A DNA stretch of 64,000 bases. Source: Escherichia coli. Lineage in GTDB: Bacteria > Pseudomonadota > Gammaproteobacteria > Enterobacterales > Enterobacteriaceae. The stretch lies in assembly GCF_013315695.1 (NCBI RefSeq), contig NZ_CP054353.1; one strand, given 5' to 3'. The position numbers and the translations under genes are program-made. The notes below the pieces were generated by a model that saw only the letters and a list, made by a program, of their open reading frames with translations, was not told where the DNA came from and made no database searches. Numbering within the stretch: position 1 is the stretch's first letter; each line of letters opens with the position of its first letter. Shown here one piece after another: positions 4,173 through 14,217 of the stretch.

Positions 4173-6707
4173 ATGGCCGGGAATGACCGCGAGCCAATTG
4201 GACGCAAAGGGAAACCGACGCGTCCGGTCAAACAAAAGGTAAGCCGTCGTCGTTACGAAGATGACGATGATTACGACGATTATGATGACTATGAGGATGA
4301 AGAACCGATGCCGCGCAAAGGTAAGGGCAAAGGCAAAGGGCGTAAGCCTCGTGGCAAACGCGGCTGGCTATGGCTGCTGCTAAAACTGGCTATCGTTTTT
4401 GCCGTGCTGATCGCCATTTACGGCGTTTATCTCGATCAAAAAATTCGCAGCCGTATTGATGGCAAGGTCTGGCAATTGCCCGCGGCAGTTTATGGTCGAA
4501 TGGTCAACCTTGAGCCAGACATGACCATCAGCAAGAACGAGATGGTGAAGCTGCTGGAGGCGACCCAGTATCGCCAGGTGTCGAAAATGACCCGTCCTGG
4601 TGAGTTTACCGTACAGGCCAACAGCATTGAGATGATCCGCCGTCCGTTTGATTTCCCGGACAGCAAAGAAGGGCAGGTGCGCGCGCGTCTGACCTTTGAT
4701 GGCGATCATCTGGCGACGATCGTCAATATGGAGAACAACCGTCAGTTCGGTTTCTTCCGTCTTGATCCGCGCCTGATCACTATGATCTCTTCACCAAACG
4801 GTGAGCAGCGTCTGTTTGTGCCGCGCAGTGGTTTCCCGGATTTGCTGGTGGATACTTTGCTGGCGACAGAAGACCGTCATTTCTACGAGCATGATGGGAT
4901 CAGTCTCTACTCAATCGGACGTGCGGTGCTGGCAAACCTGACTGCCGGACGCACGGTGCAGGGGGCGAGTACGCTGACGCAACAGTTGGTTAAAAACCTG
5001 TTCCTCTCCAGCGAGCGTTCTTACTGGCGTAAAGCGAACGAAGCCTACATGGCGCTGATCATGGACGCGCGTTACAGCAAAGACCGTATTCTTGAGCTGT
5101 ATATGAACGAGGTGTATCTCGGTCAGAGCGGCGACAACGAAATCCGCGGCTTCCCGCTGGCGAGCTTGTATTACTTTGGTCGCCCGGTAGAAGAGCTAAG
5201 CCTCGATCAGCAGGCGCTGTTAGTCGGTATGGTGAAAGGGGCGTCCATCTACAACCCGTGGCGTAACCCGAAACTGGCGCTGGAGCGACGTAATCTGGTG
5301 CTGCGTCTGCTGCAACAGCAACAGATTATTGATCAAGAACTCTATGACATGTTGAGTGCACGTCCGCTGGGTGTTCAGCCGCGCGGTGGGGTGATCTCTC
5401 CTCAGCCAGCCTTTATGCAACTGGTGCGTCAGGAGCTGCAGGCGAAATTAGGCGATAAGGTAAAAGATCTCTCCGGCGTGAAGATCTTCACTACCTTTGA
5501 CTCGGTGGCCCAGGACGCGGCAGAAAAAGCCGCCGTGGAAGGCATTCCGGCACTGAAAAAACAGCGTAAGTTGAGCGATCTTGAAACTGCGATTGTGGTT
5601 GTTGACCGCTTTAGCGGTGAAGTTCGTGCGATGGTCGGTGGTTCTGAGCCGCAGTTTGCGGGCTACAACCGTGCGATGCAGGCGCGTCGTTCGATTGGTT
5701 CCCTTGCAAAACCAGCGACTTATCTGACTGCCTTAAGCCAGCCGAAAATCTATCGCCTGAACACGTGGATTGCCGATGCGCCCATTGCGCTGCGTCAGCC
5801 GAATGGCCAGGTCTGGTCACCGCAGAACGATGACCGTCGTTATAGCGAAAGTGGCAGAGTGATGCTGGTGGATGCGTTGACCCGTTCGATGAACGTGCCG
5901 ACGGTGAATCTGGGGATGGCGCTGGGGCTGCCTGCGGTTACGGAGACCTGGATTAAACTGGGCGTACCGAAAGATCAGCTGCATCCGGTTCCGGCGATGC
6001 TGCTGGGGGCGTTGAACTTAACGCCAATCGAAGTGGCGCAGGCATTCCAGACTATCGCCAGCGGCGGTAACCGTGCACCGCTTTCTGCGCTGCGTTCGGT
6101 AATTGCGGAAGATGGCAAAGTGCTGTATCAGAGCTTCCCGCAGGCGGAACGCGCGGTTCCGGCGCAGGCGGCGTATCTGACACTATGGACCATGCAGCAG
6201 GTGGTACAACGCGGTACGGGGCGTCAGCTTGGGGCGAAATACCCGAACCTGCATCTGGCAGGGAAAACAGGAACTACCAACAATAACGTAGATACCTGGT
6301 TTGCGGGCATTGACGGCAGCACGGTGACCATCACCTGGGTAGGCCGTGATAACAACCAACCGACCAAACTGTATGGAGCCAGCGGGGCAATGTCGATTTA
6401 TCAGCGTTATCTGGCTAACCAGACGCCAACACCGCTGAATCTTGTTCCGCCAGAAGATATTGCAGATATGGGCGTGGACTACGACGGCAACTTTGTTTGC
6501 AGCGGTGGCATGCGTGTCTTGCCGGTCTGGACCAGCGATCCGCAATCGCTGTGCCAGCAGAGTGAGATGCAGCAGCAGCCGTCAGGCAATCCGTTTGATC
6601 AGTCTTCTCAGCCGCAGCAACAGCCGCAACAGCAACCTGCTCAGCAAGAGCAGAAAGACAGCGACGGTGTAGCCGGTTGGATCAAGGATATGTTTGGTAG
6701 TAATTAA
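4173..6707 (+). CDS. mrcB: Penicillin-binding protein 1B (bifunctional glycosyltransferase/transpeptidase)
   Basis: Track ORF 4158-6707; start trimmed to [14 protein letters not shown]; acidic/basic cytoplasmic tail, TM helix, GT and TP domains. Confidence 0.95.
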
Positions 6708-6723
6708 CGTCTAAGCGTGACAT

Positions 6724-6748
6724 ACCGGATGGCGAGTAGCCATCCGGT
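6724..6748 (+). terminator. Stem-loop downstream of mrcB (ACCGGATGGC-gagta-GCCATCCGGT)
   Basis: 10-bp perfect inverted repeat 17 nt after mrcB stop; weak U-tract. Confidence 0.45.
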
Positions 6749-6870
6749 AAAATAACATCCCACCCAAAGTATTAACCCTTTCTTTTCATCTGGTTGTTTA
6801 TTAACCCTTCAGGAACGCTCAGATTGCCTACCGCTTGCGAACCCGCCAGCGTTTCGAATATTATCTTATA

Positions 6871-6889
6871 TTTATAATAATCATTCTCG
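6871..6889 (+). promoter_or_regulatory. Fur box overlapping fhuA promoter -10 region
   Basis: TTATAATAATCATTCTC resembles Fur consensus GATAATGATAATCATTATC; ~40 bp upstream of fhuA start; fhuA is a known Fur-regulated gene. Confidence 0.6.
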
Positions 6890-6926
6890 TTTACGTTATC
6901 ATTCACTTTACATCAGAGATATACCA

Positions 6927-9185
6927 ATGGCGCGTTCCAAAACTGCTCAGCCAAAACACTCACTGCGTAAAATCGCAGTTGTAGTAGCCACAGCGGTTAG
7001 CGGCATGTCTGTTTATGCACAGGCAGCGGTTGAACCGAAAGAAGACACTATCACCGTTACCGCTGCACCTGCGCCGCAAGAAAGCGCATGGGGGCCGGCT
7101 GCAACTATTGCGGCGCGACAGTCTGCTACCGGCACTAAAACCGATACGCCGATTCAAAAAGTGCCACAGTCTATTTCTGTTGTGACCGCCGAAGAGATGG
7201 CGCTGCATCAGCCGAAGTCGGTAAAAGAAGCTCTTAGCTACACTCCTGGCGTTGCCGTGGGAACTCGTGGCGCATCCAACACTTACGATTACCTGATCAT
7301 CCGCGGATTCGCCGCTGACGGCCAAAGCCAGAACAACTATCTGAATGGCCTGAAGATGCAGGGCAACTTCTATAACGATGCAGTTATCGATCCGTATATG
7401 CTGGAGCGCGCTGAAATCATGCGTGGTCCGGTATCCGTGCTGTACGGGAAAAGCAGCCCTGGCGGCCTGTTGAACATGGTCAGCAAGCGCCCGACTACAG
7501 AACCGCTGAAAGAAATTCAGTTTAAAGCCGGTACTGACAGCCTGTTCCAGACTGGTTTTGACTTCAGTGATGCGCTGGATGATGACGGCGTTTACTCTTA
7601 TCGTCTGACTGGTATTGCGCGTTCAGCCAATGCTCAGCAGAAGGGGGCAGAAGAGCAGCGTTATGCTATTGCTCCAGCGTTCACCTGGCGCCCGGATGAT
7701 AAAACCAATTTCACTTTCCTTTCTTACTTCCAGAACGAACCGGAAACCGGTTATTACGGCTGGTTGCCGAAAGAGGGAACCGTTGAGCCGCTGCCGAACG
7801 GTAAGCGTCTGCCGACAGACTTTAATGAAGGGGCGAAGAACAACACCTATTCTCGTAATGAGAAGATGGTGGGCTACAGCTTCGATCACGAATTTAACGA
7901 CACCTTTACTGTGCGTCAGAACCTGCGCTTTGCGCAAAATAAAGTCTCGCAAAAGAGCGTATATGGCTACGGCATGTGCTCGGATCCGCTGTATACCAAA
8001 GACGACGATGCACTCAAGGCGAGTCCATGTTTAAGTATCCCGCAGTCAGAATGGAATCATACACTGACTCGTCAGTACGTTATCGATAATGAGAAATTAG
8101 AAAACTTCTCTGTTGATACTCAGTTGCAAAGTAAATTCGCAACCGGCTCGGTTGAACACACTCTGCTGACCGGCGTTGACTTTATGCGTATGCGTAATGA
8201 TATTGACTCCTGGTTCGGTTACGCCGGTTCCGTTGCACCGTCTGATATCTATAATTTAGACCGTAGTGACTTTGATTTTGGTGCTCACCCGGATCCGTCT
8301 GGCCCATACCGCGTTTTGCTTAAACAGAAACAAACCGGTCTGTATGTTCAGGATCAGGCGCAGTGGGATAAGGTGCTGGTGACTCTGGGTGGTCGCTATG
8401 ACTGGGCGGAACAGTCATCTTTCAACCGTGATTACGGTAATAAATCCGATCGTGATGACAAACAGTTCACCTGGCGTGGTGGCGTAAACTACCTGTTCGA
8501 CAACGGGGTAACGCCTTACTTCAGCTACAGTGAGTCGTTTGAGCCAGCATCTTTGACAGATGCAAACGGTGATCTGTTTGCACCTTCGAAAGGCAAACAG
8601 TATGAAGTTGGTGTGAAATATGTGCCGGAAGATCGCCCAATTGTGCTGACGGGCGCACTGTATCAGCTTACCAAAACCAACAACCTGATGGCGGATCCGA
8701 ATAATCCCAATTTCTCGATTGAAGGCGGTGAGATTCGCGCTCGTGGTGTAGAACTGGAAGCAAAAGCGGCGCTGTCGGCGAGTGTTAACGTAGTAGGTTC
8801 TTATACTTACACCGATGCGGAATACACCACCGACACTACCTATAAAGGCAATACGCCTGCACAGGTGCCAAAACACATGGCTTCGCTGTGGGCTGACTAT
8901 ACCTTCTTTGACGGTCCGCTTTCAGGTCTGACGCTGGGCACCGGTGGTCGTTATACTGGCTCCAGCTATGGTGATCCGGCTAACTCCTTTAAAGTGGGAA
9001 GTTATACGGTCGTGGATGCGTTAGTGCGTTATGATCTGGCGCGAGTCGGCATGGCTGGCTCCAACGTGGCGCTGCATGTCAACAACCTGTTCGATCGTGA
9101 ATACGTCGCCAGCTGCTTTAACACCTATGGCTGCTTCTGGGGCGCAGAACGTCAGGTCGTTGCAACCGCAACCTTCCGTTTCTAA
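6927..9185 (+). CDS. fhuA: Ferrichrome outer-membrane transporter FhuA (TonB-dependent receptor); loop-variant allele
   Basis: 752-aa ORF with signal peptide MARSKTAQPKHSLRKIAVVVATAVSGMSVYA, TonB box region, C-terminal ATFRF; internal loop segments differ from K-12 (see findings). Confidence 0.95.
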   Translation: MARSKTAQPKHSLRKIAVVVATAVSGMSVYAQAAVEPKEDTITVTAAPAPQESAWGPAATIAARQSATGTKTDTPIQKVPQSISVVTAEEMALHQPKSVKEALSYTPGVAVGTRGASNTYDYLIIRGFAADGQSQNNYLNGLKMQGNFYNDAVIDPYMLERAEIMRGPVSVLYGKSSPGGLLNMVSKRPTTEPLKEIQFKAGTDSLFQTGFDFSDALDDDGVYSYRLTGIARSANAQQKGAEEQRYAIAPAFTWRPDDKTNFTFLSYFQNEPETGYYGWLPKEGTVEPLPNGKRLPTDFNEGAKNNTYSRNEKMVGYSFDHEFNDTFTVRQNLRFAQNKVSQKSVYGYGMCSDPLYTKDDDALKASPCLSIPQSEWNHTLTRQYVIDNEKLENFSVDTQLQSKFATGSVEHTLLTGVDFMRMRNDIDSWFGYAGSVAPSDIYNLDRSDFDFGAHPDPSGPYRVLLKQKQTGLYVQDQAQWDKVLVTLGGRYDWAEQSSFNRDYGNKSDRDDKQFTWRGGVNYLFDNGVTPYFSYSESFEPASLTDANGDLFAPSKGKQYEVGVKYVPEDRPIVLTGALYQLTKTNNLMADPNNPNFSIEGGEIRARGVELEAKAALSASVNVVGSYTYTDAEYTTDTTYKGNTPAQVPKHMASLWADYTFFDGPLSGLTLGTGGRYTGSSYGDPANSFKVGSYTVVDALVRYDLARVGMAGSNVALHVNNLFDREYVASCFNTYGCFWGAERQVVATATFRF

Positions 9186-9196
9186 TTTCTCTTTTG

Positions 9197-9216
9197 GGGC
9201 ACGGATTTCCGTGCCC
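9197..9216 (+). other. Intercistronic stem-loop between fhuA and fhuC (GGGCACGGA-tt-TCCGTGCCC)
   Basis: 9-bp perfect inverted repeat followed by GTTT, 12 nt after fhuA stop. Confidence 0.4.
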
Positions 9217-9235
9217 GTTTCACAAGTTGGCTGTT

Positions 9236-10033
9236 ATGCAGGAATACACGAATCATTCCGATACCACTTTTGCACTGCGTAATATCTCCTTTCGTGTGCC
9301 CGGGCGCACGCTTTTGCATCCGCTGTCGTTAACCTTTCCTGCCGGGAAAGTGACCGGTCTGATTGGTCACAACGGTTCTGGTAAATCCACTCTGCTCAAA
9401 ATGCTTGGTCGTCACCAGCCACCGTCGGAAGGGGAGATTCTCCTTGATGCCCAGCAGCTGGAAAGCTGGAGCAGCAAAGCGTTTGCCCGCAAAGTGGCTT
9501 ATTTGCCGCAGCAGCTTCCTCCGGCAGAAGGGATGACGGTGCGTGAACTGGTGGCGATTGGTCGTTACCCGTGGCATGGCGCACTAGGGCGCTTTGGTGC
9601 GGCAGATCGCGAAAAGGTCGAGGAAGCTATCTCGCTGGTTGGCTTAAAACCGCTGGCGCATCGGCTGGTCGATAGTCTCTCTGGCGGCGAACGTCAGCGG
9701 GCGTGGATCGCCATGCTGGTGGCGCAGGATAGCCGTTGTCTGTTGCTCGACGAACCGACCTCGGCGCTGGATATCGCCCACCAGGTTGATGTGCTGGCGC
9801 TGGTGCATCGTTTAAGTCAGGAGCGTGGCCTGACGGTCATTGCCGTGCTGCACGATATCAATATGGCTGCGCGTTACTGTGATTATCTGGTCGCCCTGCG
9901 CGGCGGTGAAATGATTGCTCAGGGAACGCCTGCGGAAATTATGCGCGGCGAAACCCTCGAAATGATTTATGGCATCCCGATGGGTATTTTGCCGCATCCG
10001 GCGGGTGCTGCACCTGTGAGTTTTGTTTATTGA
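9236..10033 (+). CDS. fhuC: Ferric hydroxamate ABC transporter ATP-binding protein FhuC
   Basis: Track ORF 9194-10033; start trimmed to MQEYTNHSDTTFALRN; Walker A GHNGSGKST, signature LSGGERQR. Confidence 0.95.
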   Translation: MQEYTNHSDTTFALRNISFRVPGRTLLHPLSLTFPAGKVTGLIGHNGSGKSTLLKMLGRHQPPSEGEILLDAQQLESWSSKAFARKVAYLPQQLPPAEGMTVRELVAIGRYPWHGALGRFGAADREKVEEAISLVGLKPLAHRLVDSLSGGERQRAWIAMLVAQDSRCLLLDEPTSALDIAHQVDVLALVHRLSQERGLTVIAVLHDINMAARYCDYLVALRGGEMIAQGTPAEIMRGETLEMIYGIPMGILPHPAGAAPVSFVY

Positions 10034-10923
10034 TGAGCGGCTTACCTCTTATTTCGCGCCGTCGACTGTTAACGGCGATGGCGCTTTCTCCGTTGTTATG
10101 GCAGATGAATACCGCCCACGCGGCGGCTATTGATCCCAATCGTATTGTGGCGCTGGAGTGGTTGCCGGTGGAATTACTGCTGGCGCTCGGCATCGTGCCT
10201 TACGGCGTGGCGGATACCATCAACTATCGCCTGTGGGTCAGCGAACCGCCATTGCCGGACTCAGTGATTGACGTTGGTTTGCGTACAGAACCTAACCTTG
10301 AACTGCTGACCGAAATGAAACCATCGTTTATGGTCTGGTCGGCAGGATATGGCCCTTCACCAGAAATGCTGGGACGTATTGCGCCGGGTCGCGGATTTAA
10401 CTTCAGTGACGGCAAACAGCCGCTGGCGATGGCGCGTAAATCGCTGACGGAAATGGCAGATTTACTTAACCTGCAAAGCGCAGCAGAAACGCATTTAGCG
10501 CACTATGAAGACTTTATCCGCAGCATGAAACCCCGCTTTGTGAAGCGTGGTGCACGCCCGTTATTGCTGACGACGCTTATCGATCCGCGCCATATGTTGG
10601 TCTTCGGTCCAAACAGCTTGTTCCAGGAAATTCTCGATGAGTACGGCATCCCAAATGCCTGGCAAGGGGAAACCAACTTTTGGGGCAGTACCGCCGTCAG
10701 TATCGATCGTCTGGCAGCGTATAAAGACGTTGATGTGCTCTGTTTTGATCACGACAACAGCAAAGACATGGATGCGCTAATGGCAACCCCGCTGTGGCAG
10801 GCCATGCCGTTTGTCCGCGCCGGACGCTTTCAGCGCGTTCCGGCGGTCTGGTTCTATGGTGCGACGCTTTCTGCAATGCACTTTGTGCGTATTCTGGATA
10901 ACGCCATCGGAGGTAAAGCGTGA
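10033..10923 (+). CDS. fhuD: Ferric hydroxamate periplasmic binding protein FhuD
   Basis: MSGLPLISRRRLLTAMALSPLLWQMNTAHAAAIDP (Tat-like signal); ATG overlaps fhuC stop. Confidence 0.94.
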   Translation: MSGLPLISRRRLLTAMALSPLLWQMNTAHAAAIDPNRIVALEWLPVELLLALGIVPYGVADTINYRLWVSEPPLPDSVIDVGLRTEPNLELLTEMKPSFMVWSAGYGPSPEMLGRIAPGRGFNFSDGKQPLAMARKSLTEMADLLNLQSAAETHLAHYEDFIRSMKPRFVKRGARPLLLTTLIDPRHMLVFGPNSLFQEILDEYGIPNAWQGETNFWGSTAVSIDRLAAYKDVDVLCFDHDNSKDMDALMATPLWQAMPFVRAGRFQRVPAVWFYGATLSAMHFVRILDNAIGGKA

Positions 10924-12902
10924 GTAAACGAATTGCGCTTTTTCCGGTGCTATTGCTGGTGCTGCTGGTGGTTGCTGCTGCGGCGTTGACCTGGATGAAC
11001 TTCTCGCAGGCGCTGCCGCGCAGCCAGTGGGCGCAGGCCGCCTGGTCGCCGGATATTGACGTCATCGAGCAGATGATTTTTCACTACAGCTTGTTGCCGC
11101 GTCTGGCGATTTCGCTGCTGGTGGGCGCGGGCCTGGGGCTGGTGGGCGTGCTGTTTCAGCAAGTGCTGCGTAACCCGCTGGCGGAACCGACGACGTTGGG
11201 CGTTGCAACAGGCGCGCAACTGGGGATTACCGTCACCACGCTCTGGGCGATCCCAGGTGCTATGGCGAGCCAGTTTGCTGCGCTGGCAGGGGCTTGTGTT
11301 GTTGGCTTAATCGTCTTTGGCGTCGCGTGGGGGAAACGGCTTTCGCCGGTAACGCTGATCCTCGCGGGGCTGGTAGTGAGCCTTTATTGCGGCGCAATCA
11401 ATCAGTTACTGGTTATCTTCCATCATGACCAACTGCAAAGCATGTTCCTGTGGAGCACCGGAACGCTGACGCAAACCGACTGGGGCGGCGTTGAGCGTTT
11501 ATGGCCGCAGCTGCTGGGCGGCGTGATGCTGACGTTATTGCTACTTCGCCCGTTAACTCTGATGGGGCTTGATGATGGCGTGGCGCGCAATCTCGGGCTG
11601 GCCTTGTCGCTCGCGCGTCTGGCGGCGTTGTCGCTGGCGATTGTCATCAGTGCGCTGCTGGTGAACGCGGTGGGGATTATCGGCTTTATCGGGTTGTTCG
11701 CGCCACTGCTGGCGAAAATGCTGGGGGCGCGGCGTTTGTTGCCACGGTTGATGCTGGCATCGCTGATTGGTGCGTTAATTCTGTGGCTTTCTGATCAAAT
11801 CATCCTCTGGCTGACTCGCGTGTGGATGGAAGTTTCCACCGGTTCGGTGACGGCGTTGATCGGTGCGCCGCTGTTACTGTGGCTGCTGCCGCGTTTACGT
11901 AGCATTAGCGCGCCGGATATGAAGGTCAACGATCGTGTCGCGGCTGAACGCCAACACGTGCTGGCGTTTGCCCTCGCGGGCGGCGTGCTGCTGTTGATGG
12001 CTGTGGTGGTGGCGCTGTCGTTTGGTCGTGATGCGCACGGCTGGACGTGGGCGAGCGGGGCGTTGCTCGAGGATTTGATGCCCTGGCGCTGGCCGCGAAT
12101 TATGGCGGCGCTGTTTGCGGGCGTCATGCTGGCGGTGGCGGGCTGTATTATTCAGCAGCTGACCGGAAACCCGATGGCAAGCCCGGAAGTGCTGGGGATT
12201 AGCTCCGGCGCGGCGTTTGGCGTGGTGTTAATGCTGTTTCTGGTGCCGGGTAATGCCTTTGGCTGGCTGTTACCCGCAGGCAGTCTCGGGGCGGCGGTGA
12301 CGCTGTTGATCATTATGATCGCCGCCGGACGCGGTGGATTTTCCCCACACCGCATGTTACTGGCGGGGATGGCGTTAAGTACCGCGTTCACCATGCTTTT
12401 GATGATGTTGCAGGCAAGTGGTGACCCGCGAATGGCGCAAGTTCTGACCTGGATTTCCGGTTCGACCTACAACGCGACCGAGGCGCAGGTCTGGCGTACT
12501 GGAATTGTGATGGTGATTTTGCTGGCGATTACCCCGCTGTGCCGCCGCTGGCTGACCATTTTACCGCTGGGAGGTGATACCGCACGAGCCGTGGGGATGG
12601 CGCTGACGCCGACGCGAATTGCGCTGCTGCTGTTAGCGGCTTGCCTGACAGCGACTGCGACAATGACCATTGGACCGTTGAGTTTTGTTGGTTTAATGGC
12701 ACCGCATATTGCGCGGATGATGGGCTTTCGACGGACGATGCCACACATCGTAATTTCGGCGCTGGTGGGTGGTTTACTGTTGGTGTTCGCTGACTGGTGT
12801 GGGCGGATGGTGCTGTTTCCATTCCAGATCCCGGCGGGGCTGCTGTCGACCTTTATCGGCGCGCCATATTTTATCTATTTGTTGAGAAAGCAGAGCCGTT
12901 AA
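10920..12902 (+). CDS. fhuB: Ferric hydroxamate ABC transporter permease FhuB (duplicated permease domain)
   Basis: 660-aa polytopic membrane ORF MSKRIALFPVLLLVLL...; overlaps fhuD stop. Confidence 0.94.
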   Translation: MSKRIALFPVLLLVLLVVAAAALTWMNFSQALPRSQWAQAAWSPDIDVIEQMIFHYSLLPRLAISLLVGAGLGLVGVLFQQVLRNPLAEPTTLGVATGAQLGITVTTLWAIPGAMASQFAALAGACVVGLIVFGVAWGKRLSPVTLILAGLVVSLYCGAINQLLVIFHHDQLQSMFLWSTGTLTQTDWGGVERLWPQLLGGVMLTLLLLRPLTLMGLDDGVARNLGLALSLARLAALSLAIVISALLVNAVGIIGFIGLFAPLLAKMLGARRLLPRLMLASLIGALILWLSDQIILWLTRVWMEVSTGSVTALIGAPLLLWLLPRLRSISAPDMKVNDRVAAERQHVLAFALAGGVLLLMAVVVALSFGRDAHGWTWASGALLEDLMPWRWPRIMAALFAGVMLAVAGCIIQQLTGNPMASPEVLGISSGAAFGVVLMLFLVPGNAFGWLLPAGSLGAAVTLLIIMIAAGRGGFSPHRMLLAGMALSTAFTMLLMMLQASGDPRMAQVLTWISGSTYNATEAQVWRTGIVMVILLAITPLCRRWLTILPLGGDTARAVGMALTPTRIALLLLAACLTATATMTIGPLSFVGLMAPHIARMMGFRRTMPHIVISALVGGLLLVFADWCGRMVLFPFQIPAGLLSTFIGAPYFIYLLRKQSR

Positions 12903-12908
12903 TAGGAT

Positions 12909-12929
12909 GCCTCGCCCGGTGGGCGAGGC
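12909..12929. terminator. Hairpin between convergent fhuB and hemL (GCCTCGCCC-ggt-GGGCGAGGC)
   Basis: 9-bp perfect inverted repeat in the 34-bp convergent spacer; no clean U-tract. Confidence 0.45.
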
Positions 12930-12936
12930 AAAATCA

Positions 12937-14217
12937 TCACAACTTCGCAAACACCCGACGTGCAGCATCGATGGTGTTATTGATATCTTCCATGCTGTGC
13001 GCCACGGACATAAAGCCCGCTTCAAACGCTGACGGTGCCAGATAAACACCTTCATCCAGCATCATATGGAAGAAACGCTTAAAGCGTTCCACGTCACAGG
13101 CCATTACATCCTGATAGCACGTCACGGACTCGGCGTCGGTAAAGAAAATACCGAACATGCCGCCAACGTGGTTAACGACCAGCGGAATTCCGGCTTCTTC
13201 TGCCGCTTCCAGCAGACCTTCTGCCAGACGTGTTGTCAGCTCATCCAGCGTTTCGTGAACGCCCGGCTGTGCGACTTCATTCAGACAGGCGAAACCGGCC
13301 GCCATCGCAATCGGGTTACCGGAAAGCGTACCCGCCTGATAGACCGGACCAGTCGGGGCCAGCGCATCCATTACATCACGACGACCACCGAATGCGCCTA
13401 CCGGCATTCCACCGCCGATGATTTTGCCGAGGCAGGTTAAATCTGGCACTACGCCGTAATAATCCTGTGCGCCAGCTAGCGCTACGCGGAAACCGGTCAT
13501 CACTTCATCGATGATCAGCAACGCGCCAAATTCGTCACACAGCGCACGCAGACCTGGCAGGAACTCTGGCAGCGGCGGAACACAGTTCATATTGCCTGCC
13601 ACCGGCTCGACGATAATACAGGCAATCTCTTGCGGGTATTGCTCAAACGCGGCGCGTACAGAAGCCAGATCGTTATAAGTACAGGTTAAGGTATGTTTGG
13701 CGAAATCTGCCGGAACGCCCGGCGAATTTGGCTGGCCTAACGTGAGTGCGCCAGAACCGGCTTTCACCAGCAGGCAGTCAGCGTGACCGTGGTAACAACC
13801 TTCAAATTTAATGATTTTGTCGCGACCGGTAAAACCACGGGCCAGGCGGATGGCGCTCATCGTCGCTTCAGTGCCGGAGTTCACCATGCGCACCATATCC
13901 ATGGTCGGGACCAGTTCGGTCACCAGTTGCGCCATTTTCACTTCCATTTCGGTTGGTGCACCAAAGCTTAAACCACGCTCGGCGGCTTCAATCACGGCAT
14001 TGCGGATCGCCGGATGGTTATGGCCCAGCACCATCGGCCCCCAGGAACCGACATAATCGATATAGGCTTTGCCATCAACATCGTACAGATAAGCGCCGTC
14101 CGCTTTTTCGATAAACAGTGGAGTGCCGCCCACGCCAGTAAAGGCGCGAACAGGGGAGTTCACACCGCCAGGGATCAGCTCGCGCGCTGCGCTGTAAAGA
14201 TTTTCAGACTTACTCAT
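12937..14217 (-). CDS. hemL: Glutamate-1-semialdehyde 2,1-aminomutase
   Basis: 426-aa [29 protein letters not shown]...; PLP aminotransferase class III. Confidence 0.96.

Follow-up and report, generated by a model that had tools for sequence, protein, structure and literature searches.

The pattern of compensatory base changes indicates that the GC-rich hairpin encoded between fhuA and fhuC, in the fhuACDB operon of Escherichia coli, is a conserved, functional RNA stem-loop and not a product of chance. The reading that we favour, with a probability of about 0.6, is that the hairpin defines the 3′ end of an fhuA-only message within the fhuACDB unit, acting in E. coli mainly as a barrier to exonucleases and at most as a weak, leaky terminator. 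This would give a simple account of how one Fur-controlled promoter can yield far more of the receptor in the outer membrane than of the transporter in the inner one. Such a route to an excess of receptor from a single promoter is ordinary and already familiar, and nothing here is surprising to the specialist. The window, i.e. the whole stretch of DNA analysed, comprises 64,000 nucleotides of contig NZ_CP054353.1 (assembly GCF_013315695.1), and the features of the operon are collected in Table 1.

Table 1. Positions in the window of the fhu genes and of the elements flanking and forming the fhuA–fhuC junction.
Feature	Coordinates	Strand	Basis
fhuA promoter region	6835–6888	+	consensus scan, exact match
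sigma-70-like hexamers TTGCGA-18-TATTAT	6835–6864	+	consensus scan
Fur-box-like sequence TATAATAATCATTCTC	6873–6888	+	exact match
fhuA, ferrichrome outer-membrane receptor, 752 aa	6927–9185	+	ORF list; NCBIfam equivalog NF007465, 1448 bits
pyrimidine-rich spacer TTTCTCTTTTG, 11 nt, stop codon to stem	9186–9196	+	sequence
fhuA–fhuC hairpin	9197–9216	+	folds, covariation, identity compared with neutral sites
5′ arm of hairpin, GGGCACGG	9197–9204	+
loop of hairpin, AUUU	9205–9208	+
3′ arm of hairpin, CCGUGCCC	9209–9216	+
tail GTTTCAC, degenerate U-tract (K-12: ATTTCAC)	9217–9223	+	sequence; T-tract score
AAGTTGG, conserved, weak Shine-Dalgarno-like element 5 nt upstream of fhuC ATG	9224–9230	+
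fhuC, ATP-binding subunit, 265 aa, start ATG 9236	9236–10033	+	NCBIfam NF007863 equivalog, full length 1–265; RefSeq start in K-12 and other strains
fhuD	10030–10923	+	ORF list; NCBIfam equivalog
fhuB	10920–12902	+	ORF list; NCBIfam equivalog

FhuA, FhuC, FhuD and FhuB all gave full-length matches to NCBIfam equivalogs, in agreement with the RefSeq annotation of matching genomes. Since fhuD and fhuB each overlap the upstream neighbour, the 50-nt fhuA–fhuC gap is the sole spacer in the operon. Classical genetics places all four fhu genes in one operon, and the fhuA promoter is under Fur regulation. The Fur-box-like sequence of this promoter is also kept at a locus where a natural deletion has removed fhuA, and there it precedes fhuC. 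A consensus promoter scan returned promoter-like sites at chance level (7 found, 5.0 expected) and lent no support to an internal fhuC promoter. Because fhuCDB is left without another evident promoter, read-through past the hairpin must occur.

The receptor of this strain is 88% identical to FhuA of K-12 (747 aa). Most of the divergence and of the indels falls in the mid-barrel region (residues about 335–600), both ends and the downstream spacer being nearly identical, a pattern that fits the allelic replacement reported for fhuA in E. coli lineages (PMC6715731).

The hairpin has the sequence GGGCACGGATTTCCGTGCCC and is followed by GTTTCACAAG; position, sequence and tail had been given correctly in the original prediction. 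The perfect 9-bp stem described there exists as a DNA palindrome (9+2+9); in RNA, where a 2-nt loop cannot close, the fold is a stem of 8 bp, 7 of the pairs being G-C, with a 4-nt loop. The spacing first given, 12 nt after the fhuA stop and about 20 nt before fhuC, was confirmed: 11 nt lie between the stop codon TAA (9183–9185) and the stem, which begins at the 12th nucleotide, and 19 nt separate the end of the stem, position 9216 here and 169758 in K-12, from the ATG. The whole gap reads TAA-TTTCTCTTTTG-GGGCACGG-ATTT-CCGTGCCC-GTTTCACAAGTTGGCTGTT-ATG. In stem length, loop size and GC content the element lies within the range of terminator-type hairpins (GC-rich, stem of about 5–14 bp, loop of 3–8 nt). 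A change of the 5′ arm from GGGCACGG to GGGCTGCC, for example, would disrupt the stem.

The energy of the hairpin within the 50-nt spacer was −17.5 kcal/mol (z = −2.76, 2 of 200 shuffles equal or better), that of the 20-mer alone −15.9 kcal/mol (z = −5.9, none of 200 equal or better), and the structure still formed when folded with 171 nt of context. The 64-kb window was also scanned for perfect GC-rich hairpins with 8 bp or more in the stem and 3–8 nt in the loop, and 13 hits, representing about 9 distinct hairpins, were found compared with 1.5 ± 1.3 in dinucleotide shuffles. This roughly six-fold enrichment shows that such hairpins form a real class of feature; the chance expectation in any single 50-nt spacer is about 0.001. 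With up to 3 mismatches allowed, the sequence matched the window once. No covariance model of Rfam 15 matched positions 6000–14000 on either strand at E ≤ 1, and K-12 RefSeq has no feature annotated at the hairpin.

In the minimum free energy fold of the 171-nt segment an outer helix enclosed the hairpin, pairing CUAAUUU (9182–9188, stop codon included) with AAGUUGG (9224–9230). Neither the centroid nor the RNAalifold consensus contained this helix, and beyond UAA/UUG it was not kept in relatives; it was treated as coincidental. The AAGTTGG element itself is almost as conserved as the stem, with column identities of 0.65–1.0 in 65 relatives, and matches the Shine-Dalgarno consensus AAGGAGG poorly. 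Its position suggests a role in ribosome binding. If it were a deliberately weak, conserved ribosome-binding site, it would add a translational layer to a low output of FhuC.

Of 5426 complete E. coli genomes, 5423 had the hairpin, each at a single place even when the search was relaxed to an E-value of 10 with 11-nt words. Across five sampled E. coli haplotypes the stem was invariant, the differences lying in the upstream T/C run, in the loop (ATTT or ATTA) and in the first base after the stem. The last of these is G in this strain and A in K-12. Five haplotypes are too few for the invariance of the stem to be significant alone.

Comparison of one genome per species gave 80 Enterobacteriaceae loci with fhuC. 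At all 77 loci with an intact fhuA directly upstream the hairpin was found in the same position, with energies of −12.5 to −19.6 kcal/mol. The distance from stop codon to stem was 7–13 nt (mode 9 in the 65 distinct relatives) and that from stem to ATG 16–24 nt. An alignment of 65 distinct Enterobacteriaceae spacers was used for the covariation analysis. Standard pairs occupied 99% of the stem cells and changes on both sides were seen in 5 of the 8 pairs. These values were reached in none of 500 shuffles, and sliding the 3′ partner by 1–3 columns reduced pairing to 33–64%. A hand-anchored count, which corrects the loop-closing pair and agrees with the tool counts, so that the covariation is not an alignment artefact, gave A-U 48 times and G-C 17 times for pair 5, and G-C 46, C-G 10, A-U 3, G-U 2 and U-G 2 times for the loop-closing pair 8. 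The hairpin was the only conserved structure predicted in the spacer by RNAalifold.

The mean pairwise identity of the stem positions was 0.88, as against 0.50 at 71 four-fold degenerate fhuC sites of the same genomes, where no site reached 0.9. Only pairs 5 and 8 varied much, and their variation was mainly compensatory. The loops occurred in 17 variants, the stable tetraloops UUCG and CUUG accounting for 38 of 65. Since the pairs compensate and the loops vary freely with a preference for stable tetraloops, selection acts on the stability of the helix and not on a sequence motif or DNA operator.

Conservation of the element spans more than 25 genera. The original prediction had proposed a search for compensatory changes across enterobacterial fhu operons, and that search bears it out within the Enterobacteriaceae and also in Erwinia and Ewingella. 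Erwinia aphidicola carries GGGCGCGG-UACG-CUGCGCCC 10 nt after the receptor stop, and Ewingella americana GGGCACG-CUGGU-CGUGCCC; the GC hairpin at this place in Serratia marcescens is a different one. One contig labelled 'Chryseobacterium sp. 18061' (L055) showed a typical Enterobacteriaceae fhuA–fhuC junction with 94% FhuC identity (residues 12–265) and is probably a contaminated or mislabelled assembly.

The exceptions connect the hairpin with the upstream gene. In Enterobacter sp. BIGb0383 (L031) fhuA is deleted, mrcB and the Fur-box promoter being followed by fhuC, and what is left of the hairpin is a wreck of −6.6 kcal/mol. Kosakonia arachidis (L075) retains 73 aa of fhuA, a remnant joining signal peptide and C-terminus, and its stem has two mismatches (−7.8 kcal/mol), while in Enterobacter sp. 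R1(2018) (L076) an insertion of about 86 nt lies between fhuA stop and stem, which has one mismatch (−11.3 kcal/mol). These are the three weakest stems of the 80 loci, and by simple combinatorics the chance that exactly those three would be lowest is 1 in 82,160. Moreover, no such hairpin was found in Symbiopectobacterium (L090), where mrcB and the promoter are followed by fhuC without fhuA. In all four lineages with fhuA lost or its adjacency to the hairpin broken fhuCDB is kept while the hairpin is weakened, decayed or absent; therefore fhuCDB does not need the hairpin once fhuA is gone. Both the conservation and this tracking of fhuA fit a 3′-end element of the fhuA message, and the hairpin would thus belong to fhuA.

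Two observations concern these loci themselves. Three independent losses of fhuA with retention of fhuCDB are recorded (L031:1279–1500, L075:1028–1500 and L090:487–700), which could reflect loss of the receptor under phage or colicin pressure, transport being retained for other hydroxamate receptors. The insertion in Enterobacter sp. R1(2018) (L076:1368–1455) contributes two further hairpins, GGAAAATCAA...TTGGTTTTC and AAAGAGGGAAAGC...GCTTTTCCTTCTTT.

The nature of the tail bears on the function of the stem. The E. coli tail GTTTCACA has 3 T in 8 nt, compared with the 5 or more U (approximately) in 8 nt that make a U-tract, its T-tract score is 1.35, and a consensus terminator scan did not call the E. 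coli hairpin as a terminator. The d'Aubenton-Carafa-type score, computed with modern energy parameters and the original coefficients so that its zero line is approximate, was −15.6 for E. coli, about −11 for Citrobacter and Salmonella and about −26 for Klebsiella and Raoultella. It exceeded zero in 35 of the 65 distinct spacers, many of which have TTTTTATTT after the stem, and reached +17 to +52 in Enterobacter, Leclercia, Pluralibacter, Superficieibacter and Pseudescherichia with tails of that kind. A usable U-tract is missing in E. coli, Citrobacter, Salmonella, Klebsiella, Raoultella, Erwinia and Serratia, where the stem is still under strong selection. Because selection keeps the stem in these lineages, termination cannot be its only job, and a stable 3′ hairpin that stops exonucleases would be the simplest common denominator. 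A bidirectional terminator was ruled out, the minus strand having CAAAAGAG after the stem.

The proximity of the stop codon is a further factor. The 11-nt spacer is about as long as the mRNA covered by a terminating ribosome downstream of the A site (footprint figures in PMC4824070). The lambda tR2 terminator is almost fully repressed when placed a few bp from a stop codon, with less than 10% efficiency at 5 bp, and at 17–18 bp its efficiency ranges from about 0.12 to 0.8 depending on spacer sequence, the trailing ribosome hindering the folding (Li et al. 2016, PMC4824070). Since the stop-to-stem gap at fhuA falls in the ribosome-repressed range, leakiness is predicted even with a good U-tract.

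The partial terminator or 3′ stabiliser originally proposed is thus, in part, supported, and it is the best interpretation available. The terminator half is weak in E. coli in view of the 3 T in 8 nt, the lack of a scan call and the negative score. The stabiliser half is favoured: the stem-loop is stable, it stands directly 3′ of fhuA in the only spacer of the operon, and it is the structure, not the sequence, which is selected and linked to the upstream gene, as covariation and decay upon fhuA loss show. That selection retains the stem irrespective of gain or loss of the U-tract bears on the more general matter of termination as opposed to RNA protection by 'terminator' hairpins.

The layout recurs in the fec system. 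In the K-12 fecA–fecB spacer (L085:5310–5353, minus strand) TGA is followed by 9 nt, the hairpin GCCCGG-CUUG-CCGGGC (stable tetraloop, −11.2 kcal/mol), UUUUAG and the fecB ATG 19 nt further on. As in fhu, the outer-membrane receptor gene comes first and the ABC-transport genes after, and stop codon and GC hairpin are followed by 19 nt to the ATG. In work of 1995 by Enz, Braun and Crosa, fecA-only mRNA reportedly stood far above full-length mRNA, which was attributed to that stem-loop. The two junctions are, however, non-homologous: in fec the next gene encodes the binding protein FecB and not an ATPase such as FhuC, a stem of only 6 bp is combined with a better U run, and the promoter is FecI-dependent, whereas that of fhu is a plain Fur-regulated sigma-70 promoter. 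It is tempting to speculate that terminating ribosome, hairpin and initiating ribosome in this order may be a general design for operons encoding a receptor plus an ABC transporter.

Hairpins located 3′ of a more highly expressed upstream cistron, such as the malE–malF REP element, the Rhodobacter puf hairpins and that of papB–papA, block 3′-to-5′ exonucleases, so that the upstream segment accumulates. The fhuA–fhuC element resembles them as a stable hairpin just 3′ of the upstream cistron in a polycistronic message, and the action proposed for it is of the same kind. The mal element, however, is a multi-copy REP whereas the fhu hairpin is single-copy, and protection and differential stability were measured in the mal, puf and pap systems, while for fhu they are predicted from sequence. 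With intrinsic terminators, including the lambda tR2 series of Li et al. (2016), the hairpin shares a GC-rich stem of 7–10 bp, a loop of 3–6 nt and a position just after the stop codon; it differs from the canonical ones in that the E. coli copy lacks a U-tract (GUUUCAC) and that the stem is selected even without any U-tract.

Transcript data in the literature provide some hints. Adams et al. 2021 (PMC7815308) list, in their complete Term-seq tables for LB and M63 glucose, i.e. for iron-replete cells with the operon Fur-repressed, neither a 3′ end nor a Rho region at fhuA or fhuC, which speaks weakly against a strong 3′ end there. In the study by Maes et al. (PMC5389530), accumulation of an approximately 700-nt fragment from the 3′ part of fhuA was seen only in the absence of poly(A) polymerase (pcnB mutant), fhuC and fhuD responded more strongly than fhuA, and dependence on PAP I is described as typical of RNAs whose ends form stable terminator or REP structures. 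The behaviour of the fragment hints, indirectly, at an RNA ending in a stable hairpin, being that expected of one. Upon a microaerobic shift the log2 changes in RNA were −3.84 for fhuA, −2.87 for fhuC, −2.45 for fhuD and −2.01 for fhuB (PMC8910356). The changes shrink along the operon, and the levels of the cistrons are therefore not strictly proportional; the gradient could come from transcripts that cover fhuA alone, from a basal promoter downstream or from a detection floor. The SMRT-Cappable-seq supplements did not mention fhuA. A literature search, which did not extend to the early fhuA and fhuC sequence papers (1986–87), found no direct statement on a terminator or stem-loop between the two genes.

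On the preferred reading, most polymerases in E. coli would read through the hairpin, there being no real U-tract, and a closely following ribosome would hinder folding of a stem 11 nt from the stop codon. Transcripts ending at the stem, or trimmed back to it, would be protected from 3′-to-5′ exonucleases, and fhuA RNA would outlast and outnumber fhuCDB RNA. In relatives with TTTTTATTT after the stem (Enterobacter, Leclercia, Pluralibacter and others) the same stem would be a canonical, though probably still leaky, intrinsic terminator. The net effect would be more message for the receptor than for the ABC transporter from a single Fur-controlled promoter.

A leaky intrinsic (Rho-independent) terminator in E. 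coli as well, at which a fixed fraction of polymerases stops after the stem and stabilisation is incidental, is a doubtful though reasonable alternative. T residues do adjoin the GC-rich base of the stem, a full T-tract is present in half of the relatives, a location right after the stop codon is typical of terminators, and the layout is shared with fecA–fecB, which has UUUUAG. The strong selection on the stem in E. coli and several other genera without a usable U-tract speaks against it, as do the absence of a scan call and of a listed Term-seq 3′ end (in iron-replete cells) and the closeness of the stop codon, in the range where ribosomes repress termination. A translation-gated attenuator, the hairpin being placed at the front of the ribosome that terminates on the fhuA stop, is unlikely, if conceivable. 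Read-through into fhuCDB would then be set by how closely the lead ribosome trails the polymerase, and whenever translation of fhuA faltered, e.g. upon sRNA repression or secretion stress, the stem would fold and transcription or stability of the transporter message would fall, so that the supply of transporter would be coupled to receptor synthesis. The geometry relevant to this is the short stop-to-stem distance seen in all relatives (7–13 nt) and, similarly, at fecA–fecB.

Quite improbable is a role for the downstream genes, the hairpin acting as a 5′-terminal stabiliser of a processed fhuCDB message or as an insulator that separates terminating from initiating ribosomes and sets fhuC translation. 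The stem ends at a constant 16–24 nt before the fhuC ATG, just outside the 30S footprint, the conserved but weak Shine-Dalgarno-like AAGTTGG follows it, and an endonuclease could cut in the pyrimidine/U-rich spacer upstream; but where fhuA is deleted and fhuCDB kept (L031, L075 and L090) the hairpin is decayed or absent, and in the folds neither ribosome-binding site nor start codon is occluded. Very improbable, in spite of its perfect symmetry as DNA, is a reading of the element as something other than an RNA structure, be it a palindrome bound by a protein or one copy of a repeat such as REP, since its arms co-vary with pairing kept and its loops differ, which a sequence-specific operator would not tolerate, and it is single-copy in genome and window, without Rfam match or K-12 annotation. 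A palindrome arisen by chance or neutrally, without function, has next to nothing to recommend it except that the functional role is predicted from sequence comparison; the expectation of about 0.001 per 50 nt, the identity of 0.88 against 0.50 at neutral sites, the compensatory changes over more than 25 genera and the decay of the stem upon fhuA loss all oppose it.

Two specific candidates were rejected. A dispersed REP/BIME palindrome would not occur at one place per genome in the 5423 E. coli genomes and once in the window. A CsrA site (ACGGAU at the loop) is not upheld by the relatives, GGA being found only in Escherichia and Kluyvera loops, and the effect of CsrA on fhu has been reported as mostly indirect.

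Other hairpins were observed close to the operon. Beyond the mrcB stop, at a distance of 18 nt, there is a perfect GC hairpin, CCGGATGGCGAGTAGCCATCCGG (6725–6747), with TAAAATAAC behind it and, as at fhuA, no U-tract. The convergent fhuB–hemL spacer (12903–12936) is 34 nt long and contains the perfect hairpin TGCCTCGCCCGGTGGGCGAGGCA at 12908–12930, in place of which the 157-nt spacer of K-12 carries REP-like palindromes.
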